From Alphaproteobacteria bacterium (GTDB lineage: Bacteria > Pseudomonadota > Alphaproteobacteria > Rhodobacterales > Rhodobacteraceae), in the NCBI GenBank assembly GCA_030148665.1, contig JASBSZ010000008.1, positions 7,284-71,283 of the forward strand: a stretch of DNA of 64,000 nucleotides. Direction: 5' to 3'. The translations under genes and the position numbers were made by a program. Of the stretch, positions 5,088 to 20,989 are shown in pieces (the stretch's first letter is position 1; every line of letters begins with the position of its first letter). The notes under the pieces were generated by a model. The model was not told the origin of the DNA, made no database searches, and saw only the letters and a program-made list of their open reading frames with translations.

Positions 5088-6278
5088 TCAGGCGGCGTTC
5101 GACATGGCGGCGCGGGCGGTTGCGCGGAAATGTTCCTGCGCGGCGGCAACCCCGCTGCCCAGCGTGATCGGATAGTCGAGATCCTTCATGGCCATCTCGA
5201 TGGTCGCCAGCCCCGACAGAACCATGACATCGGTCAGCGCGCCCAGATGGCCGATGCGAAAGGCGCGGCCGGCCATCTCACCCAGCCCAACACCAAAGGA
5301 AACGCCATAGGCATCATAGGCGTGGTTCACCAGCGCGTCGGCATTGAAGCCCTCGGGCACATAGATGGCGGTGACGGAATCCGAATACAGCTCGGGCGAT
5401 TTCGCCACCAGTTCCAGCCCCCAGGCGGCAACCGCACGGCGCACGCCCTCGGCAAGGCGGTGGTGGCGGCCAAAGACATTGTCCAGCCCCTCGTCAAACA
5501 ACATTTCCAGGCTTTTGCGCAGGCCGAATATCAGCTGCAAAGGCGGCGTATAGGGGTAACCGGCGGCGGCATTGGCCCGCAGCATGTCGCGAAAATCGAA
5601 ATAGCAGCGCGGGCTGGTTGCGGTTTCGGTGGCCTTCATGGCCTTCTGGCTGACGGCAACAATGGCCATGCCGGCGGCCAGCATCAGCCCCTTTTGCGAG
5701 CCCGAAATCGCCAGATCGACGCCCCATTCATCCATGCGGAAATCCATCGAGGCCAGCGAGCTGACGCAATCGACATACAGCATCGCCGGGTGGTCGCAGC
5801 CATCCAGGGCCGCGCGCACGGCAGCGATATCGGACAGGACACCGGTTGCGGTTTCGTTATGGGTGACCAGCACCGCCTTGATCTGATGATCGGTGTCCGC
5901 TGCCAGACGTTCGGCAAACAGATCCGCGGGCGCGCCGGTGCCCCATTCGCATTCGATCACCTCGACATCCAGGAAATGCCGCTGGCAAAGGTCGATCCAG
6001 CGGTGGCTGAACATGCCGTAGCGGGCCACCAGCACCTTGTCGCCGGGGCTGAGCGTATTGGTCACGGCCGCCTCCCAGCCGCCGGTGCCGCTGGACGGAA
6101 AGGTGATGATCTCGGCCGTTTCCGTCCTGAACAGGCGCTTGAGATCCGCCAGCACCGGCCGCAGGGTTGTGGCGAAATCCGGCGCGCGGTGATCCATCGT
6201 CTGCACCGCCATGGCATGGCGGATCGGGTCGGGGATATTTGTCGGGCCCGGAATGAAAACCGGGTTCTGGCCGGACAT
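5088..6278 (-). CDS. bhcA: Aspartate-glyoxylate aminotransferase (class V aminotransferase, serine-glyoxylate aminotransferase type)
   Basis: ORF 5088..6338 trimmed to ATG 6278 (MSGQNPVFIPGPTNIP...), with AGAGGA SD. 396 aa. Class V aminotransferase sequence with SGSQKGL (PLP lysine). Confidence 0.75.
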   Translation of the reverse strand: MSGQNPVFIPGPTNIPDPIRHAMAVQTMDHRAPDFATTLRPVLADLKRLFRTETAEIITFPSSGTGGWEAAVTNTLSPGDKVLVARYGMFSHRWIDLCQRHFLDVEVIECEWGTGAPADLFAERLAADTDHQIKAVLVTHNETATGVLSDIAAVRAALDGCDHPAMLYVDCVSSLASMDFRMDEWGVDLAISGSQKGLMLAAGMAIVAVSQKAMKATETATSPRCYFDFRDMLRANAAAGYPYTPPLQLIFGLRKSLEMLFDEGLDNVFGRHHRLAEGVRRAVAAWGLELVAKSPELYSDSVTAIYVPEGFNADALVNHAYDAYGVSFGVGLGEMAGRAFRIGHLGALTDVMVLSGLATIEMAMKDLDYPITLGSGVAAAQEHFRATARAAMSNAA

Positions 6279-6339
6279 GGCGAATCCTCTGCTAATCATG
6301 CTTTCGCATATCTTGACGTGATTCACCCGGATCGGCAAT

Positions 6340-6438
6340 TTTTCTGAAAAATATTTTCATTTTTGAAATAAATTTACCAACTAATTGTAATCACGCATGT
6401 TTTCATTTTTCAAAATTATAATATGTTTTCTTTGAAAA
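6340..6438. promoter_or_regulatory. AT-rich divergent bhcA/bhcR control region with four TTTC/GAAA dyads (candidate IclR/BhcR operators)
   Basis: Four dyads: TTTTCtGAAAA 6340-6350; TTTTCATTTTTGAAA 6354-6368; TTTTCATTTTTCAAAA 6400-6415; TTTTCtttGAAAA 6426-6438. The 11-mer TTTTCATTTTT occurs twice (6354-6364 and 6400-6410). The region is strikingly AT-rich against a GC-rich background. Confidence 0.5.
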
Positions 6439-7376: not shown

Positions 7377-8567
7377 TCAGAACGATCGCGCCACGGCCAG
7401 GCTCAGATAATCGCTGTTGGCAAGGGCGGCCACCGGATCGGAAGGGGCGGGCGTGTTGAAGAAACGCCCCTCCAGCGTGACCTGCCAGGATTCGCCGATG
7501 CGGCGCGTGCCCTTGATCGACATCACCCTAGCCCCGCTGCGGGCGTCCAGCAGCACGCCGGCCAGCAGATTCGTGCTGGCAAGGTCATTCAGGGTCAGCC
7601 GGGCACCCAGGAACAGATCGTTGTCGAAAATGGTGACCGGGGCCAGCACCGGATCGCGCCCGTCGCGGCTGTATTCCGCCAGCAGGCCCAGATCGGCGCC
7701 CGAAGGCAGCCCTCCGGGCAATGTCCATTCGAAACCCGCAGTCACGGCGTTGAAGCGCGGGCCCTGCCCGGCCCGGTTGATGGCCTCGACCTTCCACAGC
7801 CAGTCGCCTGCCGTATATTGCAGGTCCAGCCCGATCTGCGAAATGTGATCGTAGATCGGCGTCAGGCTGGGGCCCGTGGGCATCAGGACGGGCGCGCGGC
7901 TGGTGCCTTCGAACCAGGACAGGCCGATGTCCCAGTCGCCGATGCTGTTTGACCAGCGCAGCGCGAAGTCGACATGTCCCCGGCCGCCGGGCCCGGTATA
8001 TGCCGCCGGACCCACCGGCAATGGCGGGCCCAGGCGGGTGCCGGCGCGCGGATAGACACGGGGGCGGAAACCCGGCAGCGCGTAGAGCGAAAACGTGCCG
8101 AAATCACCGTAGAGGCTGAGGCCCAGCATCGGCTGGCCCAGCTTGGCGGTGCCGTCGATACCTTCCTGCATGTCGTCCTGATTGACGATATCGACCAGAT
8201 GGCGCGATTCCGTGACGCCCCAGAAAACCTTGTCGATACCGGCGGTCAGGCTCCAGCCGTCGCCCTGGTGCAGCCAGTAGGCCTCGCGCAGGTCGGTGTG
8301 GCTGCGCCCCTCGCCTCTGTTGTCCCACCGGCTGAACAGCGACAGGACAACCCGGTCGGAATCGCCCAGATCGCCGGTGATCCGCCCATCGAAGGTGACC
8401 GAGGGAAACAGGCGGCGATTGTCGCCACCGGGCAATGGTGCCTCGGTATAGCCGCGCAGGCCCGCGCCCAGCGCGCCGGTGAACTCCCAGCTCTGGGCCA
8501 GGGCCGGCGCGCCGGCAATCGCGGCCAGACCGACGGCAAGCCAGAGCGCCCTTTTCGTCGTCCTCAT
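7377..8567 (-). CDS. Predicted outer-membrane beta-barrel protein, last gene of the ABC/LolA-like operon
   Basis: 396 aa. Signal peptide MRTTKRALWLAVGLAAIAGAPALA-QS. Alternating amphipathic, Gly/aromatic-rich sequence. C-terminal ...LSLAVARSF (terminal Phe typical of OM barrels). ATG 8567 overlaps the upstream stop (ATGA). Confidence 0.6.
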   Translation of the reverse strand: MRTTKRALWLAVGLAAIAGAPALAQSWEFTGALGAGLRGYTEAPLPGGDNRRLFPSVTFDGRITGDLGDSDRVVLSLFSRWDNRGEGRSHTDLREAYWLHQGDGWSLTAGIDKVFWGVTESRHLVDIVNQDDMQEGIDGTAKLGQPMLGLSLYGDFGTFSLYALPGFRPRVYPRAGTRLGPPLPVGPAAYTGPGGRGHVDFALRWSNSIGDWDIGLSWFEGTSRAPVLMPTGPSLTPIYDHISQIGLDLQYTAGDWLWKVEAINRAGQGPRFNAVTAGFEWTLPGGLPSGADLGLLAEYSRDGRDPVLAPVTIFDNDLFLGARLTLNDLASTNLLAGVLLDARSGARVMSIKGTRRIGESWQVTLEGRFFNTPAPSDPVAALANSDYLSLAVARSF

Positions 8568-9388
8568 CTGATATTCCTCAGATTGCCCTTGCTGAAGGTG
8601 GCCGCGCTCAGCCCCGTGCCGAAACGCCAGTCACCGTATTTCAGCACCGTCGTGCGACCCGTCTTGAGATTCTTCATGGTCAGCGTGCGCGCGCGCCAGA
8701 AACGGCCCTTGTACAGCTTGTAATCGGCAAGGTTCAGCACCTTGACCATCTTGCCCCGCCGGTCGAGATATTCGATCTTTTCCACACGATAGGTCTTGCT
8801 GTCGAACCAGGTGATCAGCCTGCTGTAGCCCGAATTGCGATAGGCGGGCTTGCGGGCGACAATCAGGCAGCTCCGGCTGCCGCAGGGTTTGCTGCCCAGA
8901 TATTCATAGGTGAACTTGCCGATCTCGGGGGCGGCGATGTCCTCGTAGGTGAATTCGCTGCCGAAAAAGGCCCCCGTCTTGTTGGACGAGGAAATCCTCT
9001 TGACCCTTTTCAGCGCCGGCAGGTACAGCCACTGGTCGTCATCGGCGCCGACCCTGGCATGGGTCAGCAACAGCGTGCCCTTCATGTCGGCCGGGCTGTC
9101 GAAGATGGCGATGGACATGTCGCCGCCCTTGTCGCCGGGAACCTCGAGCATCATCATGCGCAGGCTGCGCTTGCGCGTGTTGCCGCGGCGATCCTGCAGG
9201 ATCATGGTCATCCGCACCTGGGCGTCGCGCCAGCCGGAATCGCGCCGCTCGGCCTCGCGGGCGATTTCCAGGCCGCGCCCGGCCGCCCGGGATGCTGTCT
9301 GCGCCTGCGCGGGGGCTGCGGAAAAACCGGACCAGATGCCGGGCATGGCAAGAGCGGCGGTCAGTACCGCAATGGCAAACCTTTTCAT
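8564..9388 (-). CDS. Periplasmic LolA-like 'outer membrane lipoprotein-sorting' family protein
   Basis: ORF 8564..9571 trimmed to ATG 9388 (AGGAG SD). Signal peptide MKRFAIAVLTAALAMPGIWSGFSAAPAQA. The mature sequence resembles the LolA_like family usually encoded next to FtsX/ABC genes. ATGA overlap with the ABC ATPase stop. Confidence 0.65.
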   Translation of the reverse strand: MKRFAIAVLTAALAMPGIWSGFSAAPAQAQTASRAAGRGLEIAREAERRDSGWRDAQVRMTMILQDRRGNTRKRSLRMMMLEVPGDKGGDMSIAIFDSPADMKGTLLLTHARVGADDDQWLYLPALKRVKRISSSNKTGAFFGSEFTYEDIAAPEIGKFTYEYLGSKPCGSRSCLIVARKPAYRNSGYSRLITWFDSKTYRVEKIEYLDRRGKMVKVLNLADYKLYKGRFWRARTLTMKNLKTGRTTVLKYGDWRFGTGLSAATFSKGNLRNIR

Positions 9389-10281
9389 GACGGACTCCTT
9401 TCGGACAGCTTCACGGGGGTTTCGAACCGGGCGAGATAGCGCTCGGGGGTGGCGGTGAAACGCTCGCGGCAACGCACCGAGCAGAAATGATAGCGTTGCC
9501 CCTGATGTTCGGTGAACAGGGTCGAGATCCAGGCGTCGATGGCCATGTTGCAGACCGGATCGCGCACCCATTCGTGGTCGTCCTGCTTGCGGTCGCGCAG
9601 ATGCCCGTCCTCAAGCCACAGGATACGGTCGGCCACATCCTCGACCCGGCGGTCATGGGTGACGATCAGCACTGCGCGCCCCTCGTCCCGGGCGATGTCA
9701 TGCAGCACCATCAGCACGTCCTGCCCGGACTTGCTGTCGAGGTTGCCGGTGGGCTCGTCGGCGATGATCAGCCGCGGCTGGTTGATCAGGGCACGCGCGA
9801 TGGCGACGCGCTGCTTTTCGCCGCCCGACAGGGTGCCGGGCAGCGCGTTGCGCCGCTTGGACAGGCCCAGCCGGGCCAGCAGTTCATCGGCCCGCTCCTG
9901 CGCGGCCCGCACGCCGCCGGGCGCCAGATGGGCGGGAAACAGCACGTTGTCGCGCACGCTGAGGGCTTCGAGCAGGTTGAACGCCTGGAACACGAAACCG
10001 ATGGTGCGGGCACGCAGCCTGGAAACGCGCGCATCGGACAGGGTCGAGATATCGACCCCGTCGATGATCACGCTGCCGCTGTCGGGCCGCAGCAGCGCGC
10101 CCAGGATCGACACCAGCGTCGTCTTGCCCGAGCCCGACGGCCCGGTGATGGTGACCATTTCCCCGGATGCCACATCCAGTGACACCCCATCGACCGCGCG
10201 TACCAGGGTGCGGCCTTCGCCATAGGTCTTGGTCAGGTTTTCCGCATGCAGGATCGTTGATGACATTTTTCCTGTCCTCAT
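9385..10281 (-). CDS. ABC transporter ATP-binding protein (MacB/LolD-type) with a C-terminal YHS/TRASH-type metal-binding domain
   Basis: Walker A GPSGSGKT, signature LSGGEKQR, Walker B LIIADEPT. The C-terminal 60 aa, VRDPVCNMAIDAWISTLFTEHQGQRYHFCSVRCRERFTATPERYL..., match the YHS pattern DPVCxM...YxFCSxxCxxxF. ATG 10281 overlaps the permease stop (ATGA). Confidence 0.85.
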   Translation of the reverse strand: MRTGKMSSTILHAENLTKTYGEGRTLVRAVDGVSLDVASGEMVTITGPSGSGKTTLVSILGALLRPDSGSVIIDGVDISTLSDARVSRLRARTIGFVFQAFNLLEALSVRDNVLFPAHLAPGGVRAAQERADELLARLGLSKRRNALPGTLSGGEKQRVAIARALINQPRLIIADEPTGNLDSKSGQDVLMVLHDIARDEGRAVLIVTHDRRVEDVADRILWLEDGHLRDRKQDDHEWVRDPVCNMAIDAWISTLFTEHQGQRYHFCSVRCRERFTATPERYLARFETPVKLSERSPS

Positions 10282-11387
10282 TGCTGAAAGGCGGTTACGG
10301 GATCGACGGCAAGCACCCGGCGCACCGGAATTGCGGCAGCGATCAGCGACACCACTACCGCCAGCCCGCCCGTTCGGATGAGTGAATCGCCGCTCATGCC
10401 CAGGCTGACCTTGGGCACGAGGGCCTCGGTCAGGGGGATGGCCAGATAGATCAGCCCCACCGCCAGCCCGTAGGCCAGCAGCCCGATGACCAGCGCCTGA
10501 ACGAGGATTGCCGCCCAGATCACCCGGTCGCGCACGCCAAGTGCCTTGATCACCGCCAGTTCCCGTTCACGGTCGGAGATGTGCGAATAGATGATGAACC
10601 CGGTCAGCAGCACCGCCAGCGCCCCGCCGATGATGGTCATCATCCAGATGATTTCCAGCCCCATCTGCACCGCAATCGAAAAATCACGACGTGAAAAATC
10701 CTGCCGTGTCAGGGCGTTGACCTTTTCCACCTGGGTTCGGATACGTTCTGCCAGCACCGCCGGATCGACCCCTGGCCGGGCATCGACCAGCAGATAGCTG
10801 ACCGCACCGACCGACGACATGGTATCAGCCAGATCGGACAGGGTCACGAAACTGACCGAGTTGGCCATCGAAAAGGTATCGGCCGAAAACCCCGCAACCG
10901 TAAAGTCGCGTCCGGCGATGCGCACCTTGTCGCCGATCTTCAGCCCCGCATCCGAGGCAAAGATGTCGGGCACGATCGCCTGACCCGGCCCCGGCAGGCG
11001 CGCGCCGGCCGCCGATTTCCACGGTCCCGCACGGCCGTCGCCCTGCTCGATTCCCACGACATAGGAAAACCAGCTGCGCCCGCCGGCCTGGATGACCGAG
11101 TTGAGATAGAGAATCGGCGTGACCTTGGCGACGCCATCGACCGCGGCCACCGCGTCGATCTTCCAGTCGCTTAGGAACGAGGTCGTCATGTGCATGTTGC
11201 CGACCCCTTTCTGCATGACCCAGACATCGGCGTCGGTCTTGTCGATCAGGGCCACGATCTGGCGCGATTCTCCGGTAAAGACCCCGGCAAAGAACAGCAC
11301 CAGCGCAAAGGCCCCCGCCACCGCCGCGACACTGGCAAGCAGCTGCTGCGGCGCGGCCAGAAGTTCCCTGTAAGTCCAGTTCAACAT
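10278..11387 (-). CDS. ABC transporter permease, FtsX/MacB-type (paralogue 2)
   Basis: 369 aa. TM1, then a large periplasmic domain, then three C-terminal TMs typical of the FtsX family. Confidence 0.8.
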   Translation of the reverse strand: MLNWTYRELLAAPQQLLASVAAVAGAFALVLFFAGVFTGESRQIVALIDKTDADVWVMQKGVGNMHMTTSFLSDWKIDAVAAVDGVAKVTPILYLNSVIQAGGRSWFSYVVGIEQGDGRAGPWKSAAGARLPGPGQAIVPDIFASDAGLKIGDKVRIAGRDFTVAGFSADTFSMANSVSFVTLSDLADTMSSVGAVSYLLVDARPGVDPAVLAERIRTQVEKVNALTRQDFSRRDFSIAVQMGLEIIWMMTIIGGALAVLLTGFIIYSHISDRERELAVIKALGVRDRVIWAAILVQALVIGLLAYGLAVGLIYLAIPLTEALVPKVSLGMSGDSLIRTGGLAVVVSLIAAAIPVRRVLAVDPVTAFQQ

Positions 11388-11391
11388 CGTT

Positions 11392-12522
11392 TCACCCCCT
11401 GAATGCCGTTGCCGGATCCAGCCGCATCAGGCTGCCCAGCGGTGCCAGTGCGCCCAGAACCGCCAGCACCAGCGCGATCAGCGCGGTGCGCCACAGGGCC
11501 GTGGGATCCAGCGTCTGCAACATGTAGACCGGGGCGAGCGATTCGATCAGCGACCCCAGCCCGGCCCCGATCGCGATGCCCAGCGGAATGGCCAGCACCA
11601 CGGTTCCCAGCGCCTCGGTCATCACCCCGATCACGAGGTGGCGCGTGTCGAACCCCAATGCACGCAGCACGCCCAGGCTCTTGCGGCGGGTACGCACGGC
11701 GGCATAGGAAAACAGCCCGATGGCTAGCGCCCCGATGCCATAGCTCAACCCCAGCAACAGGTTCATGATCGGACCCAGCAGTTCGCGCCCCAGATTTTCG
11801 TCATTGGCAGCCAGCTGCGCAGGCAGGATGGCCGAGGCCTCGGGGACGTTGGCCGATATGTCGGCGGCCACGGCCACGGGGGAAAAACCCTTTTTCACAT
11901 CGACCATCAGAAAACTGAGCAGCGGAAAGGCCGCGATGTCGGCGGCAACATCGGATTCGAAATAGAAATCGATCAGCCCGTCATAGGTGAGAAAGGCAAA
12001 GGGCGTGAACAGCGCGGCGGCCCCGTCGGCAATACCCGAAACGGTAAAGTCATAGGCCGACAATGTCAGCGTGTCACCGACACTCAGCCCATAGCGCTCG
12101 GCCAGCGACCGGTCGATGACGATCTCGCGCGATTTGCGGGGCGCGCGCCCGGCGATCAGGCGGCTCGGCCCACCCTTGTCGTCATAGACCAGAACGATGA
12201 TCGGCGTCAGACGTCCGTCGGCCTCGTAGATCGCTGAAATCGAGGTCAGCGGATGCGCGCTGGCAACGCCGGGGCGGGATTCCACGTCACGCCGCGTGCG
12301 CTGGGGCAGGATCGAGCGTGCGGCAAGGAAATTCGTGACCCCCTTCTGGGACACGATGACATCGCCGCCACGCTGCAACACGGCCTGGCGCAGCTGGGTA
12401 TACGAACCCGTCAGAAAGCCTTCGAGAACCAGAATCTCGGCCAGAATCGCGGCAATTGCCAAGATCGTCAGTGCCGTTCTGGCGGGCTTGTGGACAGCGT
12501 TTCCAAGGGTCAGGGAAAACAT
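11392..12522 (-). CDS. ABC transporter permease, FtsX/MacB-type (paralogue 1)
   Basis: 376 aa. Same architecture as paralogue 2. AAGGAG SD precedes ATG 12522. Confidence 0.8.
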   Translation of the reverse strand: MFSLTLGNAVHKPARTALTILAIAAILAEILVLEGFLTGSYTQLRQAVLQRGGDVIVSQKGVTNFLAARSILPQRTRRDVESRPGVASAHPLTSISAIYEADGRLTPIIVLVYDDKGGPSRLIAGRAPRKSREIVIDRSLAERYGLSVGDTLTLSAYDFTVSGIADGAAALFTPFAFLTYDGLIDFYFESDVAADIAAFPLLSFLMVDVKKGFSPVAVAADISANVPEASAILPAQLAANDENLGRELLGPIMNLLLGLSYGIGALAIGLFSYAAVRTRRKSLGVLRALGFDTRHLVIGVMTEALGTVVLAIPLGIAIGAGLGSLIESLAPVYMLQTLDPTALWRTALIALVLAVLGALAPLGSLMRLDPATAFRG

Positions 12523-12569
12523 CCGATGCTCCTTTTCCTTCGGGCGTCGTCTCGGGCGTCCGGGCTAAT

Positions 12570-12782
12570 TCATGCGGATTTCTCTGGTTCCATGTCCGGC
12601 GCAGGCGCTGCGCGTTCGGGCGACGCGTCGTCGGCAGCGTCCTTGCCGCCCCCGCAGCATCCGCCGCGCCCGACCCTGGCCCCGCTCCGGTGGCCCTTGC
12701 CATGCCGGTGACCGAACAGGTGCATGCCGCCCATGCCCCCGAGCAAGGCCAGCACAACCCAGTTTTCCGCAATCCAGTTCAT
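12570..12782 (-). CDS. Small His/Cys-rich membrane peptide (DUF2933-like), first gene of the operon
   Basis: ORF 12570..12842 trimmed to ATG 12782 (AGGAGG SD). MNWIAENWVVLALLGGMGGMHLFGHRHGKGHRSGARVGRGGCCGGGKD...: one TM helix followed by an HxxxHxHxxxH and CC cluster. 70 aa. Confidence 0.6.
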   Translation of the reverse strand: MNWIAENWVVLALLGGMGGMHLFGHRHGKGHRSGARVGRGGCCGGGKDAADDASPERAAPAPDMEPEKSA

Positions 12783-12846
12783 CCCGATCCTCCTGCAAGG
12801 GCGGATCTGGTGCCGCCCCGGTTTCAGTGTCGGGGCAGTCATGCGG

Positions 12847-12868
12847 CTTCCAGTCTATGGAAGGTCAA
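12847..12868 (-). promoter_or_regulatory. CueR/MerR-type copper-box promoter
   Basis: Minus strand reads TTGACCTTCCATAGACTGGAAGCC. This is a -35 TTGACC fused to the dyad ACCTTCC-N7-GGAAGcc, with the same register as the E. coli copA promoter (TTGACCTTCC-N5-CTGGAAGG). It lies ~65-85 nt upstream of ATG 12782. The -10 is weak (CATGAC/ATGACT at 19-20 bp spacing). Confidence 0.6.
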
Positions 12869-12985: not shown

Positions 12986-13978
12986 TCAGGCAGCCCGTGT
13001 ATCCCCGCCGGTGGCAAGGCCAGCCTCGTTCCAGGCCACCATGCCGCCGCGCAGCACGCGAACGTCGCGCGCACCGGATTCGGCCAGCAGGCGTGCCGCC
13101 AAGGCCGAGCGTCGATCGGTGCGACAGACGGCAATGATCGCCCCCTGCATGGCCTCGGTCAGTTCATCGAGGCGGTCGTCCAGCTCGTCCAGGGGAATGT
13201 TGACGGCGCCGGGTATGTGGCCGTGTGGGCCGGAAAACTCGTCAGTGCCGCGCACATCCAGCACAAACGGCGCATCCGCCGCGCCCAGCCGGGCGTGCAG
13301 ATCGTCGATCGCTGCCCAGGAAACCGGCCCGCCCCGCAGACGGCGGATCAGGCGCGGCACAAAGGCGATGGTCGCCAGCAGGGCCAGCGCCAACACCCCG
13401 TAGCGGATGGCCGAGGCATCGCCACCCAGGGCCTCGCGCCCGGCATATCCCAGCCAGGTATAGGCCAGCGCGCCGGGGGCCATGGTGAAAAAGGATGTCA
13501 CCACATAGGACACAAAGGGAATCCGCGTGAGCCCGAAGGCATAGTTCGACAGGTTGAAGGGAAAGACCGGGACAAGACGCACAAAGGCGACAAAGCGCCA
13601 GCCCTCGGCCTCGACCCCACGCACGAGGCGGCCCAGCCTGCTGCCAGCCTTGCGCGCAACCCAGTCGCCGGCCAGAAAACGGGCGATCAGAAAGGCCAGC
13701 GCGGCCCCGATGGTCGCACCCGTCAGGTTGAACAGCGTCCCCGCGACGGGGCCGAACATAGCCCCGCCCGCCAGGGCAAACAGCGCGCCGGGGGCAAAGA
13801 CGACGGTGCCCAGCGCATAGGCGACGACATAGACCGCCGGGGCAAGAGCGCCAAATCCCGACAGCCAGGCGTCCAGCGCCGCCGGATCCAGCCGGTCGCG
13901 GTTCAGCCCGACAACCAGCACCCCGACACCCAGCAATACCAGCAGGGCCAGGCGCCCCATGAACTCATTCCTGCGCAT
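12986..13978 (-). CDS. TVP38/TMEM64 (DedA-related) membrane protein fused to a C-terminal rhodanese domain
   Basis: Multi-TM N-terminal part (...FVRLVPVFPFNLSNYAFGLT...) plus rhodanese (VLDVRGTDEFSGPHGHIPGAVNIP...AVCRTDRRSA active-site loop). Start is ATG 13978 or ATG 13960; both have SD-like sequence. GTG 14011 is less likely. Confidence 0.7.
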   Translation of the reverse strand: MRRNEFMGRLALLVLLGVGVLVVGLNRDRLDPAALDAWLSGFGALAPAVYVVAYALGTVVFAPGALFALAGGAMFGPVAGTLFNLTGATIGAALAFLIARFLAGDWVARKAGSRLGRLVRGVEAEGWRFVAFVRLVPVFPFNLSNYAFGLTRIPFVSYVVTSFFTMAPGALAYTWLGYAGREALGGDASAIRYGVLALALLATIAFVPRLIRRLRGGPVSWAAIDDLHARLGAADAPFVLDVRGTDEFSGPHGHIPGAVNIPLDELDDRLDELTEAMQGAIIAVCRTDRRSALAARLLAESGARDVRVLRGGMVAWNEAGLATGGDTRAA

Positions 13979-14831
13979 TGTCGTTCCTTCCGTCCTGTTG
14001 CGTCCGATCACGCGGGTCGGGCCCGCTTGCCGGACCCAGGGCCGGCTGGATCAGCATTCGGTCCAGCCACTGGTCGCGAAGGCTGCGAAACTGCTCGATC
14101 CCGATTTCCATGTCGTCATGGCCCCTGGCGGGCTGGGCGATATATGTGCCCAGCAGCCGATCCCACCATGTGAGGTTGAACCCGAAATTGCTGTCGGTCT
14201 CGCGCCGGTCAACGGAATGGTGGACGCGGTGCATGTCGGGCGTGACCAGAAACAGGCGCAGGAAGCGATCCAGCCATGCGGGCAGGCGGATGTTCGAGTG
14301 GTTGAACATGGCGGTTCCGTTCAGGATCACCTCGAATATCAGCACGGCGACAGCCGGCGGGCCCAGCGCCAGCACCGCGGCCAGCTTGATCCCCATCGAC
14401 AGCACGATTTCCAGCGGATGAAACCGCAACCCCGTGGTCACGTCGATGGCCTGATCGGCATGGTGCATCCGGTGCAGCCGCCATAGCGCGGGCACGAAAT
14501 GGAACACCACATGCTGGAGATAGATGACGAAATCGAGGATCACGACCGAGGCCAGGATCGCAACCCAGCCCGGAAGCTGGACGATATTGAACAGACCCCA
14601 GCCATTGCGCTGGGCCATCAGCGCCAGGCCGACGGCCACCACCGGGAATGTCAGACGTACGACAATGGTATTGATGACGACGACCCCCAGATTGTTGGTC
14701 CAGCGGATCAGCCGCGGGATTTCGATACGCCGGCGCGGCACCGCCAGTTCAAGCGCCGCCATGGCAATCAGGATTCCCAGAAAAACCGCCAGGCGAACGG
14801 CACCTTCATTTGTCAAAAGCAGCTCGGTCAT
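13965..14831 (-). CDS. Fatty acid hydroxylase / sterol desaturase family membrane protein
   Basis: ORF trimmed to ATG 14831 (MTELLLTNEG...). His boxes HFVPALWRLHRMHH and DMHRVHH. The 3' end abuts or overlaps the TVP38::rhodanese start. Confidence 0.75.
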   Translation of the reverse strand: MTELLLTNEGAVRLAVFLGILIAMAALELAVPRRRIEIPRLIRWTNNLGVVVINTIVVRLTFPVVAVGLALMAQRNGWGLFNIVQLPGWVAILASVVILDFVIYLQHVVFHFVPALWRLHRMHHADQAIDVTTGLRFHPLEIVLSMGIKLAAVLALGPPAVAVLIFEVILNGTAMFNHSNIRLPAWLDRFLRLFLVTPDMHRVHHSVDRRETDSNFGFNLTWWDRLLGTYIAQPARGHDDMEIGIEQFRSLRDQWLDRMLIQPALGPASGPDPRDRTQQDGRNDNAQE

Positions 14832-14844
14832 GTTCGATACCCCT

Positions 14845-14865
14845 TGTGGAACAGGTGATTCCACA
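14845..14865. promoter_or_regulatory. Inverted repeat in the divergent hydroxylase/ArsR promoter region (candidate ArsR operator)
   Basis: TGTGGAA-N7-TTCCACA: 14845-14851 and 14859-14865 form a perfect 7-bp dyad. An ATTCCA direct repeat follows immediately. The 80-nt spacer 14832-14911 is relatively AT-rich. Confidence 0.45.
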
Positions 14866-14911
14866 TTACATTCCAATAATCGCTTGAATGATATAATGAA
14901 GGGACCCCCCG

Positions 14912-15577
14912 ATGTCAATCAGCCCCAAGCTGAAGCTGTACGAAGCATTCGCCGCGATCGGCCGCGCGCTGGGAAACGCGCATCGGCTGGACATCCTGGA
15001 ACACCTGGCCCAGGGCGAACGCGGGGTCGAGGCGCTGGCCGCAAAGCTGGGCCTGACCACGGCCAACACCTCGCAACATCTTCAACATCTGAAACAGGCA
15101 GGGCTGGTCGAATCCCGCAGGCAGGGGAAATTCATCCTTTACCGCCTGTCCGATGACAGCGTGCAGAGGCTGCTCGCCGCCCTGTTCGAAGTGGGTGAGC
15201 GCAACCTCGCCGAGGTGGACAAGGTTCTGCGCGATTACTTTCAGGCCCGCGACGCGATGGAGCCGGTCTCGCCCGACGAGCTGATCGCCCGCTCGCGCCA
15301 GGGGCTGGTCACGGTGCTGGACGTGCGCCCCCGCGACGAGTTCGAGGCCGAACATCTGCCCGGCGCGGTCAACATCCCGCTGTCCGAACTGGAAGAAAGA
15401 CTGTCCGAGCTGAACCCCGAGAAAGAGGTCGTCGCCTATTGCCGGGGCCCCTATTGCGTGCTGTCGTTCGAGGCCGTGGCCAGGCTGCGCGATCACGGGC
15501 TCAGGGCGCGACGCCTCAGCGACGGCCTGCCGGAATGGCGCCTGGGCGGGCTGCCGGTGGAAAGCGGCGCCGAATGA
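14912..15577 (+). CDS. ArsR/SmtB-family transcriptional regulator fused to a rhodanese domain
   Basis: HTH HRLDILEHLAQGERGVEALAAKLGLTTANTSQHLQHLKQAGLV, plus rhodanese (VLDVRPRDEFEAEHLPGAVNIP...AYCRGPYCVLS). Confidence 0.8.
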   Translation: MSISPKLKLYEAFAAIGRALGNAHRLDILEHLAQGERGVEALAAKLGLTTANTSQHLQHLKQAGLVESRRQGKFILYRLSDDSVQRLLAALFEVGERNLAEVDKVLRDYFQARDAMEPVSPDELIARSRQGLVTVLDVRPRDEFEAEHLPGAVNIPLSELEERLSELNPEKEVVAYCRGPYCVLSFEAVARLRDHGLRARRLSDGLPEWRLGGLPVESGAE

Positions 15578-15640: not shown

Positions 15641-17245
15641 TCAATGCGCGGTGACCCCGCTGGCCTCGGGCGGGGGCTTGCGCATCAGCATGGCACCGGC
15701 GGCCAGCGTCAGGAACAGCAGCGTCAGCATGGTAAAGACGTCGATATAGGTCATCACCCCGGCCTGACGCAGCACCATGCGTTTCAGCTGGGCAAGGGCC
15801 GCGGTCTGCCCGTCCAGCCCGTGGCTGGAATAGCTGCGCGACAGCTTGTCAACCAGCCCGACGGCCTGGGCATTGGCATAGCTCACCGTCTCTGACAGGC
15901 GCGCATAATGGAAATCGGCGCGCTTGGTCAGCATGGTGTTGATGATCGCCAGCCCGAAGGCCCCGCCGAGGTTGCGCGTCAGGTTGTACAGGCCCGACGC
16001 ATTCTTGATGCGCGCGCGCGGCAATGTCCCCAGCGACAGGTTGTTGATGGGCACCATGCACAGCATGAGCGCCACGCCCCGCAGCACCTGCGGCACCAGC
16101 AGCTCGTTGAAATCCCAGTCGGCGGTCAGATAGGTCATCCGCCATGTGCCCGCGGCAAAGATGACGAACCCGCCCATCAGCATCACCCTGAGGTCGAGCA
16201 CCCGCGACAGCATCCCCGACAGCGGCGCCGACAGGAACATGACCGCCCCGCTGACAGCCAGCGTTTCGCCGATCATCAGCGAATCGTATCCCCGGATCCG
16301 CCCCAGATACAGCGGGTAGAGATAGGTCAGCCCGTACAACCCGACCCCAAGGGTAAAGGAAAACAGCGAGCCGACCGCGAAATTGACATCCGTGAACGCC
16401 TTGAGATCGACGATCGGCTCGTCGCTGGTGAAGGCCCGCCAGAAGAACAGGACCGCGCCAACGGCCATGACAATAGCAAAATTGCGCACGGTTTCGTCCT
16501 GCAGCCAGTCATTGGACGGGCCTTCTTCCAGCACATATTCCAATGAGCCCAGAAACAGCGCCATGCCCAGCAGGCCCCACCAGTCGAACTTGTGAAAAAG
16601 GGCGAGGTTGGGCTTGTCGAAATCGATCAGCAGCCAGGCAAAGATGGTGACGGGAATCCCGATCGGCACGTTGACCAGAAACAGCCAGTGCCAGGAAAAG
16701 GCATCGCTCAGATATCCGCCCACGGTCGGGCCGATGGTCGGGGCAAGGGTTGCGATCAGCCCGATGACGGGCGACACGATCGCCCTTTTCGAGGGCGGAA
16801 AGATGGTGAACGCCGCGGCAAAGACGCTGGGGATCATGCCGCCGCCAATGAAACCCTGGGCCGCGCGATAGATGATCATCTGGTCGATATTGGTGGCGGT
16901 CGCCGCCAGGGCGCTGGAGATGGTGAAACCGGCCGCCGAGACGGTAAACACGACGCGCGTGGACAGCATCCGCGCCAGATAGCCCGACAGCGGGATCATG
17001 ATCACCTCGGCAATCAGATAGGCGGTCTGCACCCAGGCGATCTCGCTGTTCGAGGCGCTGAGACCGGCCTGGATCTCGGTGAGCGATGCCGAGACGATCT
17101 GGATGTCGAGGATGGCCATGAACATGCCGAACACCATCACCCCAAAGGCGATGATGCGCGCCGGGGTGATCGGCGGTTCCGCCGCGTGCGGGGGGATGGG
17201 GGCAGATATGGCGACATCCGCCGGCTCGGTCGTGATCGACGACAT
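15641..17245 (-). CDS. MFS multidrug efflux permease, DHA2/EmrB family (14-TM type)
   Basis: ORF trimmed to ATG 17245, 1 nt after the upstream stop. Long hydrophobic MFS sequence typical of EmrB/QacA. Confidence 0.8.
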   Translation of the reverse strand: MSSITTEPADVAISAPIPPHAAEPPITPARIIAFGVMVFGMFMAILDIQIVSASLTEIQAGLSASNSEIAWVQTAYLIAEVIMIPLSGYLARMLSTRVVFTVSAAGFTISSALAATATNIDQMIIYRAAQGFIGGGMIPSVFAAAFTIFPPSKRAIVSPVIGLIATLAPTIGPTVGGYLSDAFSWHWLFLVNVPIGIPVTIFAWLLIDFDKPNLALFHKFDWWGLLGMALFLGSLEYVLEEGPSNDWLQDETVRNFAIVMAVGAVLFFWRAFTSDEPIVDLKAFTDVNFAVGSLFSFTLGVGLYGLTYLYPLYLGRIRGYDSLMIGETLAVSGAVMFLSAPLSGMLSRVLDLRVMLMGGFVIFAAGTWRMTYLTADWDFNELLVPQVLRGVALMLCMVPINNLSLGTLPRARIKNASGLYNLTRNLGGAFGLAIINTMLTKRADFHYARLSETVSYANAQAVGLVDKLSRSYSSHGLDGQTAALAQLKRMVLRQAGVMTYIDVFTMLTLLFLTLAAGAMLMRKPPPEASGVTAH

Positions 17246-17246
17246 G

Positions 17247-18491
17247 TCAGTTGCCCATGCTGAGGCGCGGGCTGACCTCGGGCTTTCGGGGGGTCGGGGC
17301 AGGCGAGCCACCGGCCGCCGGGGCGGTGCGGCTGTCCACCCGGACCACCACGCTGAGGCCCGCGCGCAGGCGCGACAGCGCCCCGGCCGGGCCGGTCAGA
17401 TCAATGCGTACGGGAACGCGCTGGACGATCTTGGTGAAATTGCCGGTGGCGTTGTCGGACGGCAAAAGCGAAAACAGAGACCCCGTCCCCGGCGCGATGG
17501 ATGCGACGCGGCCGGTAAAGGCGATATCGGGCAAGGCATCGACGCTGATCGAGACCTTTTCGCCGGGCACGACGCGCTCCATCTGCGTTTCCTTGAAATT
17601 CGCGGTGATATAGAGCTTGCCGACCGGCACCACCATGGCCAGCTTTTGCCCCACACCCACCAGATCGCCGGGATGGGCCGAAAGATTGGCAACCTGCCCG
17701 TCAAACGGCGCGCGCAGGGTGGTAAATCCAAGGTCACGCGCGGCCTTCTTGCGGGCCAGTTCCAGCCCCCTCATGCGGCTGGCAGCCTCGGCCCGCTGGG
17801 CCTTGAGCACCGAGACATTGGCCCTGGCGGCAGCCAGCTGCGCCCTGGCCGAGGCCACGGCGGCGCGCGCCCGACGGTCGGCGGTGACGGCCTGGTCGCG
17901 CCGGGCGCTGGTGATGGTGCCGCTGGAAAACAGCTCGTCCGCCCGCTTGCGTTCGCGGGCCGCGTTGTCGGCCGTGGCCTGGGCCGATTGCAATCCGGCC
18001 TCGGCCTGCGCGATCTGGGCGCGGGCGGCGGTGATCTGGGCATCCATGCGCGCCAGCGTCATCTTCTGGCTGTCGATTTTCGCCTGGGCACTTTCCAGTG
18101 CGATGCGATAATCCCCGTCGTCGATCACGACCAGCGGATCGCCCTTTTTCACCATCTGGTTCTCGGCCACCGGCACGCGCGCGACATAGCCGGGCACCTT
18201 GGGCGAGACATAGGTGGAATCCGCCGCAAGATATGCATCATCGGTCGTCACCATGAACCGGCCGACCAGCCAGTATTCGCGCCCGAAATATCCACCGGCC
18301 GACAGCGCGGCCATGAGAAACAGCAACAGGACGAACCTGCCCCGCCGCCTTTTCGCGGGGGGCTCTGACGGCTGCGTGGCCGCTGTGTCCGCCTGCGGCA
18401 AGGGGGGCGTGGCTGCCTCGTTGATGGGGGTCACGTCCCCGCTATCCTTGCTCGTTGCGCCTTTTTGTCGTGCCGATGCATTGCGCGCCAT
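17247..18491 (-). CDS. HlyD/EmrA-family membrane fusion protein
   Basis: N-terminal TM, long Ala/Arg/Gln coiled coil, beta-barrel/lipoyl-type flanks. Start set at ATG 18491 because the palindromic operator at 18515-18529 lies inside the longer ORF (to 18545). Confidence 0.75.
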   Translation of the reverse strand: MARNASARQKGATSKDSGDVTPINEAATPPLPQADTAATQPSEPPAKRRRGRFVLLLFLMAALSAGGYFGREYWLVGRFMVTTDDAYLAADSTYVSPKVPGYVARVPVAENQMVKKGDPLVVIDDGDYRIALESAQAKIDSQKMTLARMDAQITAARAQIAQAEAGLQSAQATADNAARERKRADELFSSGTITSARRDQAVTADRRARAAVASARAQLAAARANVSVLKAQRAEAASRMRGLELARKKAARDLGFTTLRAPFDGQVANLSAHPGDLVGVGQKLAMVVPVGKLYITANFKETQMERVVPGEKVSISVDALPDIAFTGRVASIAPGTGSLFSLLPSDNATGNFTKIVQRVPVRIDLTGPAGALSRLRAGLSVVVRVDSRTAPAAGGSPAPTPRKPEVSPRLSMGN

Positions 18492-18514
18492 GTTTCGTTT
18501 TCCCGATATATTGA

Positions 18515-18529
18515 ACCGAACGGTTCGGT
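18515..18529. promoter_or_regulatory. Perfect 15-bp palindrome, candidate TetR operator 1
   Basis: ACCGAACgGTTCGGT, in the emrA-tetR divergent spacer. Confidence 0.6.
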
Positions 18530-18577
18530 ACGTTTTCTGTTGCATTAGCCGATTCGTTGGGCAATAATCAAGACAGA

Positions 18578-18592
18578 ACCGAACCGTTCGGT
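18578..18592. promoter_or_regulatory. Perfect 15-bp palindrome, candidate TetR operator 2
   Basis: ACCGAACcGTTCGGT. Same arms as operator 1, 63 nt away, 20 nt upstream of the tetR ATG. Confidence 0.6.
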
Positions 18593-18611
18593 TTGAACTC
18601 GTGGAGCACGA

Positions 18612-19328
18612 ATGTCATCCAAGGATCAATCCGTTTCTCCCGGCCCGTCCCGCCCTGCCCCGTCCTCCGGCGGGCGGGACGGTGATAAAATTCAAGGTTC
18701 GAAATGCCAGGCCGGGCAGAACCCGCGCAAGCGCAACCAGATCCTTGACGGGGCGCGGCGGGTGTTTCGCGAGATGGGCTTTGATGCCGCCTCGATGAAC
18801 GATATCACCCGCGCGGCCGGCGTGTCCAAGGGTACGGTCTATGTCTATTTCTCCAACAAGGAAGAGCTGTTCGAGGCCCTCGTCGATGACGAGCGGCGCA
18901 AGCTGTTTGCCGATCTCTATGACCGGCTGAACGGGCACGCGGATACCAGCGCCCAAGCGGTGCGCGAAACCCTGATCTCGTTCGGCTGCACGCTGGCCCA
19001 TCGCCTGTGCTCGGAACCCGTCATCCGCGCCCAGCGCACCGTGATCGCGGTGGCCGCGCGCATGCCCGAACTCGGCAGACGTTTCTTTGAAAAGGGCCCG
19101 CTGAGAGGGCACGCCATCCTGGCCGACTATCTGTCCGCGGCGGTCGAACGCGGCGTGCTGTCGATCCCCGATATCGATCTGGCCGCTTTCCAGCTGTTCG
19201 AACTGTGCGTTGCCGGCATCATGCGGGCGCGCCTGTTCGCGCATGCCTCGGACCCACCGGATGACGACGAGATTTGCCATATCGTCACCAGCGGCATCGA
19301 CATGTTCATGGCCGCCTACCGCGCATAG
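18612..19328 (+). CDS. TetR/AcrR-family transcriptional regulator
   Basis: HTH FDAASMNDITRAAGVSKGTVYVYFSNKEELF. GTGGAG SD. Divergent from the efflux genes. Confidence 0.85.
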   Translation: MSSKDQSVSPGPSRPAPSSGGRDGDKIQGSKCQAGQNPRKRNQILDGARRVFREMGFDAASMNDITRAAGVSKGTVYVYFSNKEELFEALVDDERRKLFADLYDRLNGHADTSAQAVRETLISFGCTLAHRLCSEPVIRAQRTVIAVAARMPELGRRFFEKGPLRGHAILADYLSAAVERGVLSIPDIDLAAFQLFELCVAGIMRARLFAHASDPPDDDEICHIVTSGIDMFMAAYRA

Positions 19329-19409
19329 CGCAACCGCCGCAGACAATCGCAAGGTCCCATGCCATCGACATCAATCGCCGGCTGCCCCGGCATCCAGACC
19401 GAGAACACA

Positions 19410-20828
19410 ATGATGCCCAGACATTTACGAAACACCAGACTGGCCGGGTTGGCGCCGGTTTCCCTGATGCCCGCCCTCGTGGCCCCGCTCATCGCGGCCT
19501 CGGTTTCCCTGGCGCCTGCCCCCCTCGTCGCCGAGACCCTGACCGATGCCCTGATTTCGGCCTATCGCACCAGCCCCGAACTCAAGGCACAGCGGGCGAC
19601 GCTGCGGGGCTCGGACGAGGACGTGGCCAGGGCTCTGGCGGCACGTCGCCCGACGCTGAACGCTCAGGCCTCGGCCGGGGTCAACCATTCCTTTGCCTTC
19701 AATCGCGACACCCGGTTCGCGACGCTCAACCTGGCCGCCAGCCTGACATTGTGGGACGGGGGCATGACCGATCTGGCGATCCGTTCGGCCAGGGCCGGGG
19801 TCAGGCTCGGGCGCGTCAATCTGGTCGATACCGAACAACAGGTGATGCTGGGCGCCCTCACCGCCTACATGGACATGCGCCGCGACGAAAAGCTGCTGGA
19901 CCTTGCCCGCACCAGTTTCGAGGTCGCCACCCGGCAGGTCAAGGCGATCCGCGACCGTTTCGAGGTGGGCGAGGTGCGGCGCACCGATGTCAGCCAGGTC
20001 GAGGCGCGCAAGGCCCTGGCCCAGAGCATCGTCGCCCTGCGCCAGGGCACGCTGGAAATCTCGCGCGAGGCCTATCACGTGGCGGTCGGGAAATACCCGG
20101 GCCGGCTGGCCCCGCCCCCGCCCCTGCCCCGCCTGCCGAAAACCCAGGCGGCCGCGCGCGCGCTGGCGCTGAAAAACCACCCCATGATCCGGCGCGCGCG
20201 GATTCTGGTCGAGATCGCCGATCTGAACGTTGCCCGCGCCCGCGCCGCGATGAAACCGCGTCTCGGGTTGCAGGGCAGCCTCGGAATCAACGCCAATGCG
20301 CCGACCGGAGACACGGCGACCGTCTCGATCACCGGCTCGATGCCGATCTATCAGGGCGGCGGATTGACCTCGGCCCTGCGCAAGGCACAGGCGCTGGCAC
20401 AAAAGGCGCGATTTGATCTGCAACGCGCCGGCCAGTTGGTGACCCAGGGTGTCAGCAGCAGCTGGTCGCGCCTGGCGATCGCGCGCGCCACCATCGTTGC
20501 CCGCCGCAAGGAGGTGGAATCGGCGCAGGTGGCGCTGAAGGGAATCCGCGACGAGGCCAGTCTCGGCACCCGCACCGCGCTTGACGTGCTGGACGCCGAA
20601 AAGGTGCTGTTCGAGGCCCGGACGAACCTGGCAACCGCCCGCCATGACGAGGAAATTGCCGCATATGGCCTGCTGTCGGCGATGGGTCTGCTGACCGCGC
20701 GCCATCTGGGCCTGGGCGTCAAGCTGTACGATCCGGTCGCACATTACCGCAAGGTGGAAAAGGCCCCGGTCGATTCCCGGCGCGGAAAGCTGCTCGACCG
20801 TATCCTGCGCCGGGCCGGACAGAACTGA
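19410..20828 (+). CDS. TolC-family outer-membrane efflux channel
   Basis: ORF trimmed to ATG 19410 (MMPRHLRNTRLAGLAPVSLMPALVAPLIAASVSLAPAPLVAETLTDAL...). Two-repeat TolC-like sequence (SPELKAQRA..., ...LDVLDAEKVLFEAR...). Confidence 0.8.
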   Translation: MMPRHLRNTRLAGLAPVSLMPALVAPLIAASVSLAPAPLVAETLTDALISAYRTSPELKAQRATLRGSDEDVARALAARRPTLNAQASAGVNHSFAFNRDTRFATLNLAASLTLWDGGMTDLAIRSARAGVRLGRVNLVDTEQQVMLGALTAYMDMRRDEKLLDLARTSFEVATRQVKAIRDRFEVGEVRRTDVSQVEARKALAQSIVALRQGTLEISREAYHVAVGKYPGRLAPPPPLPRLPKTQAAARALALKNHPMIRRARILVEIADLNVARARAAMKPRLGLQGSLGINANAPTGDTATVSITGSMPIYQGGGLTSALRKAQALAQKARFDLQRAGQLVTQGVSSSWSRLAIARATIVARRKEVESAQVALKGIRDEASLGTRTALDVLDAEKVLFEARTNLATARHDEEIAAYGLLSAMGLLTARHLGLGVKLYDPVAHYRKVEKAPVDSRRGKLLDRILRRAGQN

Positions 20829-20839
20829 TCCTGCGTTAT

Positions 20840-20866
20840 CGGCCTGGCCGGATCGCCCCCAGGCCG
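20840..20866 (+). terminator. Hairpin just after the tolC-like stop (candidate terminator)
   Basis: cggcctgg (20840-20847) pairs with ccaggccg (20859-20866), followed by tt. Confidence 0.35.
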
Positions 20867-20989
20867 TTCCGGGGGCATACAAGGGGGCATTTCGCAGGGC
20901 CGCCGGGCGCAGGTTCCGGCGGCGTCCCGTCCCACCCGGGCCGAAGGCTCGTCCCGAGTGGGCCGTTTTCGGCGGCGGAACCGCGCGCC

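Follow-up and report, generated by a model that had tools for sequence, protein, structure and literature searches.

The stretch of DNA analysed here, called the window throughout, comprises 64 kb of a contig from an alphaproteobacterium of the Rhodobacteraceae, and all positions count from its first letter. On its minus strand, the window carries an operon of six genes, which encode a small peptide, two permeases and an ATPase of the ATP-binding cassette (ABC) type, a LolA-like protein and an outer-membrane beta-barrel. A first-pass annotation, made from the sequence of the window, had listed the six minus-strand open reading frames (ORFs) in this order, and all coordinates matched the ORF list. 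The features of the locus, in the direction of transcription, are as follows:

12838-12868, minus strand: predicted MerR/CueR-type promoter, with the -35 element TTGACC at 12863-12868, a dyad at 12846-12864 and the candidate -10 element CATGAC at 12838-12843
12570-12782, minus strand: peptide gene, 70 aa
11392-12522, minus strand: FtsX/MacB-type permease 1, 376 aa
10278-11387, minus strand: FtsX/MacB-type permease 2, 369 aa
9385-10281, minus strand: ABC ATPase, 298 aa, LolD/MacB/DevA clade, with YHS/TRASH at the C-terminus
9433-9567, minus strand: YHS domain of the ATPase, residues 239-283, with D241, C244, C267 and C271
8564-9388, minus strand: LolA-like protein (PF17131 / TP_0789-like), 274 aa, soluble and periplasmic, with a signal peptide
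7377-8567, minus strand: outer-membrane beta-barrel, 396 aa, with a signal peptide and a C-terminal Phe (...ARSF)

The genes are tightly coupled, as the first-pass annotation had claimed. ATGA overlaps were read at 10278-10281, 9385-9388 and 8564-8567, and the two remaining junctions have gaps of 4 nt and 47 nt. The ATPase is identical (100%) to P0121, which public gene calls start at ATG 10266 (residue 6), and the start within the first overlap may therefore not be the one in use. From ATG 10266, the ATPase has 293 aa and is separated from permease 2 by an 11-nt gap instead of overlapping it; owing to this difference in the start, an exact look-up of the 298-aa form gave no record. Here and below, P-numbers denote the homologous proteins and L-numbers the homologous loci that were compared. 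The closest relatives came from genome bins classified as Rhodobacter, Aliiroseovarius, Albidovulum and Rhodobacteraceae. A megablast comparison of the operon with the PLSDB plasmids gave only short matches to ABC motifs.

Comparison of the homologous loci showed that the operon consists of two separable modules, an engine formed by the permeases and the YHS-bearing ATPase (ABC-YHS) and a pair formed by the LolA-like protein and the barrel. We see an even chance that the two modules together build a copper-responsive trans-envelope exporter.

Both permeases matched MacB_PCD and FtsX above the Pfam cut-offs (1e-11 and 6e-12 for permease 1, 4e-15 and 4e-13 for permease 2). In both proteins MacB_PCD, the large periplasmic domain, precedes the C-terminal FtsX transmembrane domain. 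In NCBIfam, the permeases were weakly near DevC, ADOP, YbbP and LolC/E, all far below the equivalog cut-offs, and this includes the best match of permease 2 (DevC, 1e-13). Permease 1 had no sequence relative in the PDB at E 0.01. Permease 2, which served as query for the scan of other loci, was 41-77% identical to their permeases. The ATPase matched ABC_tran (7e-36), and its best matches in NCBIfam were LolD, DevA, MacB and FtsE at 1e-58 to 1e-68, which place it in their clade; LolD (9e-68) and DevA (2e-67) were both below their equivalog cut-offs. In the PDB, the nucleotide-binding domain (NBD) of MacB (5lj9, 2e-53) and LolD (7arh, 4.5e-51) were found. The FtsX domain, MacB_PCD and an NBD of the MacB/LolD/FtsE clade, which together mark type VII ABC systems, are thus all present. 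This agrees with the earlier claim that the inner-membrane part resembles LolCDE and MacB.

MacAB-TolC and DevBCA-HgdD share the MacB-type permease fold and the NBD clade with the window operon. DevBCA, which exports glycolipids, is close also in single proteins, as permease 2 had DevC as its best NCBIfam match, and DevA ranked among the best for the ATPase. Unlike in these systems, the permease of the window operon is heteromeric and not homodimeric, the NBD forms a protein of its own, the ATPase bears a YHS domain, and genes for a HlyD-family adaptor and for TolC or another outer-membrane efflux protein (OEP) are missing from the operon. The lack of a MacA/HlyD adaptor and of TolC had been noted in the first-pass annotation, and Pfam found neither among the six products. 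The only adaptor and duct set near the operon belongs to a major facilitator superfamily (MFS) cluster 5-8 kb away, which is TetR-regulated and a separate system. This cluster (15641-20882) comprises an EmrB-like MFS pump, a HlyD-type adaptor, a TetR regulator and an OEP factor, as judged by ORF sizes and synteny with L085.

The YHS domain on the ATPase, which had been read from the sequence before, scored 37.7 bits (2e-9) against a Pfam cut-off of 30.3. Its cysteines are spaced C244-X22-C267-X3-C271, and this fits C-X19-22-C-X3-C, the cysteine signature of TRASH domains. Among 121 ATPases, C244, C267 and C271 were invariant and D241 was kept in 95%. ABC_tran and YHS were present together in 120 of the 120 best ATPase homologues, down to 64% identity, and YHS was fused to the ATPase in 59 of the 60 loci in which the 3' end of the gene was present. 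There is experimental precedent for YHS as a copper switch. In the adenylyl cyclase of Mycobacterium phlei, copper turns the enzyme on through a C-terminal YHS domain, for which an Asp and three Cys, the same set as in the ATPase, were proposed as copper ligands (PMC4626032). Like the ATPase, the cyclase carries this domain behind a short linker at the end of a catalytic domain that uses a nucleotide; unlike in the cyclase, the partner of YHS in the window is an ABC ATPase. Gating of the ATPase by metal bound to YHS would be consistent with this likeness.

The LolA-like protein matched PF17131 (LolA_like) over nearly the entire profile (positions 3-183 of 184; 8.5e-54, 182 bits against a cut-off of 30). 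Its PDB matches were 3bk5 (4e-66), a structural-genomics entry, 9tp6 (LolA3 of P. gingivalis, 2e-33) and also 4z48 and 3buu. A partial match to DUF1329 covered profile positions 146-223 of 368 with 41.8 bits. No lipobox Cys was seen when the signal peptides of the LolA-like protein and the barrel were read.

Among known systems, the operon works most like LolCDE-LolA(-LolB). In both, two distinct permeases of the FtsX type, with large domains in the periplasm, are combined with one ATPase of the LolD clade and with a soluble protein of the LolA superfamily encoded alongside, and the logic of extraction and hand-off is likely shared. The operon could accordingly be read as a paralogue of Lol, a second sorting route for particular lipoproteins, e.g., those that are damaged by copper or bind copper. 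The two permeases, the ATPase with its 9e-68 match to LolD and the LolA-fold protein, which mirror LolCDE-LolA, speak for such a route. We nevertheless consider it decidedly unlikely, as the operon falls outside the Lol systems on every test of membership that was run. Against TIGR02212 (LolC/E) the permeases reached 21.9 and 22.9 bits (cut-off 362), and against TIGR02211 (LolD) the ATPase reached 228 bits (cut-off 307.75), so that the equivalog cut-offs were missed by a wide margin. The carrier is a PF17131 protein and not LolA. LolA3, its homologue of known structure, has a hydrophobic groove, is devoid of the Arg and the Leu that are hallmarks of LolA and LolB, respectively, and fails to bind LolB (PMC13103446). 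The place of the lipoprotein LolB as acceptor is taken by a beta-barrel, the ATPase carries YHS, and the operon is non-housekeeping and lies behind a CueR-type promoter. The pair works also with resistance-nodulation-division (RND) transporters, which are not known for moving lipoproteins.

The last gene had been predicted to encode an outer-membrane barrel. An AlphaFold2 model from an alignment of 28 sequences supported this prediction, with 18-20 strands, a pLDDT of 86 and a pTM of 0.81. In Foldseek the model matched general porins, OmpM1, OmpF and the alginate exporter AlgE (E 1e-10 to 1e-9). Since the best query-normalised TM-scores were only about 0.5-0.6, the fold is that of a generic large barrel. 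No sequence match was found in Pfam, NCBIfam or the PDB. A profile search of 1.84 billion representatives retrieved 3,319 relatives at the 50%-identity level, 1,374 of them with E < 1e-30, and the barrel thus belongs to a sizeable family without annotation. A highly conserved segment spans residues 113-146. The invariant residues are concentrated at 116-146, which lie outside the strands of the model, between strands five and six. By its position, this segment may be a loop like loop 3 of porins.

Several long members of the barrel family (P0262, P0275, P0284, P0287, P0303, P0370 and P0392) have N-terminal AMIN, SPOR or OmpA domains. These domains bind peptidoglycan, which suggests that some members of the family are tethered to the cell wall. 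The long proteins (500-740 aa) were also considered as fusions of a LolA-like protein and a barrel. This was rejected, as 7 of 10 had AMIN, SPOR or OmpA domains and the other 3 had no match.

A scan with one genome per species found a relative of the barrel in at least 595 species, and the best 80 loci were analysed. The gene for a LolA-like protein was located immediately 5' of the barrel gene in about 60 of these loci, and in 54 the pair was preceded by a gene for an RND transporter of the MMPL type, with HAE3 as best NCBIfam match (4.5e-50). ABC-YHS genes took the place of the MMPL gene only in Rhodobacteraceae-type loci and in a few others among the 80 (Haliea, Woeseiaceae, Syntrophobacteraceae). 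In L032 (~9120-9205), L043 (~6159-6340) and L084 (~455-576), the ORFs for MMPL and the LolA-like protein are in one frame with no stop between them. About a dozen barrels are orphans. A third inner-membrane partner was considered for barrels that have no LolA-like neighbour and rejected, since they lie beside unrelated genes.

A metagenome scan with permease 2 resulted in a set of 76 non-redundant ABC-YHS loci. The presence of the pair was counted in 29 ABC-YHS loci that were long enough and had not been selected through the barrel: 14 contained the pair, 2 the LolA-like gene alone and 13 neither gene. The position of the pair relative to the ABC-YHS core varied as well. It was found downstream, upstream (L134, L151, L154, L159) or split (L101). 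In crude neighbour-joining trees, the ABC-linked barrels and LolA-like proteins fell into several clades that were interleaved with RND-linked ones, and the trees of both proteins showed the same groupings. We concluded that the pair evolves as a unit and that its engine was changed more than once. The first-pass annotation had presented the six genes as one module, and their neighbourhoods speak against a conserved unit of six: the peptide is present only in the closest relatives, the pair is mostly found with HAE3/MMPL transporters, and many ABC-YHS operons do without the pair.

This distribution also allows an explanation in which the modules act separately. The ABC-YHS core would then be a copper-gated mechanotransmitter like FtsEX that serves a periplasmic process (copper handling, enzyme activation), and the pair would be a co-located but separate unit for uptake or export at the outer membrane. 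The 13 operons without the pair, the varying order of the modules and the orphan barrels are in line with this. The type VII group itself includes FtsEX, which does not transport, and the YbbAP-TesA lipid hydrolase complex. Nevertheless, we regard separate action as unlikely. Wherever both modules were present they were adjacent, on the same strand and overlapping or nearly abutting, and this was the case in at least five clades of the crude tree. The repeated, independent joining of the modules argues for functional coupling. Apart from these operons, the pair is almost always attached to an inner-membrane transporter.

Analogous designs with an RND engine have been studied. AmeABCD of Castellaniella is responsible for monoterpene efflux and confers tolerance to monoterpenes (PMC6394551), and clusters of DUF1302, DUF1329, BNR and HAE3-RND genes showed cofitness in Shewanella and Pseudomonas (10.1101/072470). 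These systems and the window operon have in common an inner-membrane exporter, a protein of the LolA superfamily, their own barrel that is not TolC and the lack of a classical adaptor; the partial DUF1329 match of the LolA-like protein is a further likeness. Their engine is of the RND type, whereas the window operon has an ATP-driven type VII ABC engine and lacks both an RND gene and a BNR/Ycf48-like protein. Its barrel is shorter (about 400 aa compared to about 600 aa for DUF1302), has no sequence relation to theirs and no DUF1302 match, and the copper context is new. TOL_3187 of Thalassolituus, which is possibly related, consists of MMPL and a LolA-like protein, as in the in-frame fusions, and was induced 42-fold on C28 alkane along with the downstream porin TOL_3188 (PMC6304351).

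A comparison of ABC-linked with RND-linked pairs revealed, for both proteins, no Cys, His or Met residue that is conserved only where the engine is of the ABC type. Group-specific positions of any kind were limited to R72 and F230 in the LolA-like protein, with none in the barrel. Since the same residues are conserved with both engines, the class of cargo is probably the same whichever engine drives the pair. The usual HAE3/MMPL engine and the hydrophobic groove of the fold suggest that the cargo is most likely amphiphilic or lipid-like and not a bare metal ion. A metal-loaded cargo, as considered in the first-pass annotation, was thus not supported.

Transport could also run inwards, from the barrel via the LolA-like protein to the ABC engine, in an importer of a hydrophobic nutrient or a metallophore. 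The authors of the Thalassolituus study did propose that the porin following the MMPL-LolA-like protein helps long-chain alkanes to pass (PMC6304351). For the window operon we consider import highly improbable, as neither a substrate-binding protein nor a TonB-dependent receptor is among its products. To our knowledge, type VII ABC systems and HAE3/MMPL transporters act solely as exporters or extractors, which also counts against import.

The ABC-YHS family is widespread and uncharacterised, and its operons reside among copper-resistance genes. Within 6 kb of 26 non-redundant ABC-YHS operons, 327 ORFs were compared to Pfam. They included stand-alone YHS proteins (9 ORFs), multicopper oxidases (Cu-oxidase_3, 6 ORFs), DUF411 (5), HMBD (4), CopB (2), Cupredoxin_1 (2), a CusS sensor (1), ICMT/PEMT (at least 3), Cytochrome c (12) and two-component histidine kinases (4). 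Single ABC-YHS loci contained DUF2933 together with ICMT, YHS-HMBD P-type ATPases, cupredoxins and CzcB. Of 37 ABC-YHS loci with a length of 12 kb or more, 13 contained a gene for a P1B ATPase; such a gene was absent from all of 43 RND-type loci whose summed length was comparable (Fisher p 1e-5).

Such neighbours recall the copper islands with MerR, CopA, cupredoxin, DUF2933 and ICMT genes in Alteromonas and others (PMC8478169). Genes for DUF2933, ICMT, cupredoxins, P1B ATPases and MerR are seen repeatedly near ABC-YHS operons, and the peptide of the window resembles the C-terminal half of DUF2933; unlike these islands, the window itself contains none of the other island genes. ABC transporters, FtsX, YHS and LolA are not mentioned in the main text of the paper on the islands (PMC8478169).

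The promoter in front of the window operon reads TTGACC-TTCCATAGACTGGAAGCCG-CATGAC (12868-12838) and consists of a -35 element, a 19-nt spacer and a candidate -10 element. The spacer holds CCTTCCATAGACTGGAAGC, in which the dyad CCTTCC-N7-GGAAGc has one mismatch to CCTTCC-N7-GGAAGG. A dyad between -35 and -10 elements that are 19 nt apart is the CueR-type architecture, as in the copA promoter of E. coli. A generic sigma-70 scan missed the promoter because of the 19-nt spacer. With one mismatch at most, the site at 12838-12868 was the sole match to the CueR-type pattern in the window. The pattern was found in 10 of the 76 ABC-YHS loci, every time on the operon strand, and in none of 54 RND-type control loci (919 kb; Fisher p 0.005). 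In the window, L001, L085, L008 (-134) and L098 (-212), the site directly precedes the first gene of the operon. It was located farther 5' in L094, L095 and L112 (about 0.9-1.3 kb from the operon) and also in L165. No match was found in L003, where a two-component system adjoins the operon. In L159, several CueR-type boxes (9146, 15338, ~2569) are spread over 13 kb around the ABC-YHS operon, together with genes for DUF2933, ICMT, stand-alone YHS proteins and a P1B ATPase; this locus gives the impression of a copper island with several operons that share one regulator.

The link to metal that had been claimed for the operon was strengthened by these data: the three cysteines of YHS are invariant, the CueR-type promoter recurs in other lineages, and copper-resistance genes are enriched near ABC-YHS operons. 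It has to be weighed against an exporter of hydrophobic compounds or lipids that is constitutive or regulated in another way and has no tie to metal. YHS would then be a structural appendage like a zinc ribbon, and the copper genes would be neighbours merely because islands are shared. The main partners of the pair are HAE3/MMPL transporters, related systems have a link to monoterpenes, and the possibly related MMPL-LolA-like protein is induced with its porin on long-chain alkanes. Some ABC-YHS loci lack metal genes, and lipid-modifying genes (CTI, CMAS, FA_hydroxylase) are found near the operons. All of this would fit an exporter without a tie to metal, which we nevertheless hold to be rather unlikely. 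It does not account for the conservation of the Asp and Cys3 site in 121 ATPases, for P1B ATPase genes in ABC-YHS but not RND-type loci, or for CueR-type promoters directly 5' of the operon in several lineages and in none of the RND-type loci, and the cyclase of M. phlei provides the experimental precedent for YHS as a copper switch.

Membrane-lipid genes were seen near the ABC-YHS operon of L090 (4495-5787 and 15192-17702) and of one further locus, where they encode CMAS and CTI. They may fit a theme of envelope remodelling.

The 70-aa peptide starts behind a strong Shine-Dalgarno sequence (gcAGGAGGatcggg-ATG). An alternative start at 12842, which would give 90 aa, is unlikely because it lies inside the predicted -10 region and because of the strong Shine-Dalgarno sequence of the 70-aa start. 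The peptide has a single hydrophobic helix (NWVVLALLGGMGGMHLFG), an HRHGKGH run and a GGCCGG motif. Of the families named in the first-pass annotation, FtsX, MacB_PCD, ABC_tran, YHS and LolA_like were matched by the operon products, while DUF2933 (PF11666) was not reached by the peptide: it scored 15.2 bits (cut-off 21, E 0.025) over residues 18-32 only, and Pfam and NCBIfam gave nothing usable for it. Direct comparison with true DUF2933 proteins showed a common hLLGxxxxMHLFxHxxH core, with one of their two helices present in the peptide. The His run and the CC motif were kept in L001 and L085, where the tail diverges. In the other ABC-YHS loci the peptide was not found.

A conserved upstream peptide across ABC-YHS operons was considered and rejected, as the ORFs 5' of other operons were heterogeneous. 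A Met-rich secreted protein is encoded 5' of the L063 operon (562-1005), and a secreted protein with a conserved MHGSHCIAHPDCAA motif 5' of the operons of L003 (5559-5888) and L092 (1551-1904). Upstream of the operons of L112 (2638-3027) and L165 (7386-8033) there are genes for proteins like the annotated DUF302 protein of L003. These differing genes often look metal-related.

Directly 5' of the window operon, on the same strand, genes for a VTT/DedA-rhodanese fusion (12986-14011) and a fatty-acid hydroxylase (13965-14918) are located, and beyond them is a divergent gene for an ArsR-rhodanese regulator (14912-15577, plus strand). The layout is syntenic in L001 and L085, where a DsrE gene is present that is missing from the window. 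VTT/DedA genes were found beside ABC-YHS operons also in L086, L160, L161, L164, L166 and L170. The VTT/DedA, rhodanese and hydroxylase neighbours may indicate a functional tie to sulfur or lipid handling.

If the operon is a copper-responsive exporter, its parts could act as follows. Excess Cu(I) (or Ag/Au) would activate a MerR/CueR-type regulator encoded elsewhere, which would switch on the promoter at 12838-12868. The first module would be a heteromeric type VII (MacB/LolCDE-like) ABC transporter with two different FtsX permeases and presumably an ATPase dimer, each copy having a cytoplasmic C-terminal YHS/TRASH domain with the Asp and Cys3 site. Metal on this site would license or tune ATP hydrolysis. 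By mechanotransmission through the periplasmic domains of the permeases, an amphiphilic cargo, probably lipid-like and not a metal ion, would be pulled from the outer face of the inner membrane. The second module would provide the outward path with its soluble PF17131 carrier and the dedicated 18-20-strand barrel. The LolA-like protein would take up the cargo in its hydrophobic groove and hand it on to the barrel, to be inserted into or released from the outer membrane. The His/Cys peptide may be a lineage-specific accessory protein that binds metal at the membrane.

Several observations weigh against this model. What leaves the model most uncertain is the absence of the pair from almost half of the ABC-YHS operons, which means that the core must work without it and have a function of its own. 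One such core lies in L087 (5755-8873), a bin assigned to Dehalococcoidia, next to a cupredoxin gene, stand-alone YHS genes and a two-component system. The phylum of the Dehalococcoidia is not known to have a classical outer membrane; provided that the bin assignment is correct, the core can do without one. Whether the LolA-like protein shuttles freely is uncertain, since some RND versions have it fused to the transporter. Mechanistic detail cannot be transferred from type VII ABC transporters of known structure, as the permeases have diverged too far from them. The Cys3 site could be structural or bind another metal, and L088 and L090 have no clear metal context. The -10 element CATGAC is weak. 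The dyad alone turned up by chance, with at least one match in 15 of 100 shuffles of the window, and its weight therefore comes from its position and its recurrence in other loci and not from rarity. Within the 64-kb window, no P1B ATPase gene was found, and tblastn with CueR, MerR and SoxR probes detected no MerR-family gene, although the same probes succeeded in other ABC-YHS loci.

The first-pass annotation knew of no characterised system with this composition. A full-text literature search found no paper that describes an ABC-YHS system or the barrel family of the window, and in this respect the statement was confirmed; it has to be qualified by the analogous designs that have been studied (AmeABCD and the DUF1302/DUF1329/RND clusters). 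The parts of the operon are of known kinds. New is the combination of an ABC-YHS engine with a PF17131 carrier, an own barrel and a copper context, from which we infer its function. A more far-reaching version of the exporter model, which we put forward as speculation, would make the ABC-YHS family the first ABC machine that is gated allosterically by a cytoplasmic copper sensor. In the window operon it would power a Lol-like route, so far unrecognised, that leads from the ABC engine via PF17131 to a dedicated barrel and would remodel or unload the outer membrane under copper stress, with a specific lipid, or copper-poisoned lipoprotein or lipid intermediates from the inner membrane, as its possible cargo.

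The type VII ABC systems (MacB, LolCDE, FtsEX, YbbAP) are a small and much-studied group, in which each member has revealed a distinct envelope process. ABC-YHS is a further widespread branch of this group with an invariant domain like a metal sensor, it resides in copper islands in several phyla, and it has an optional private route to the outer membrane that it has in common with HAE3/MMPL lipid exporters. If our model is true, cytoplasmic copper sensing would be tied directly to ATP-driven work in the periplasm, and two large families without known function, PF17131 and the barrel family, which counts about 3,300 representatives and lacks a Pfam model, would be given a role. The ABC-YHS systems would then add a component to bacterial copper resistance beyond CopA, CueO, Cus and Pco.

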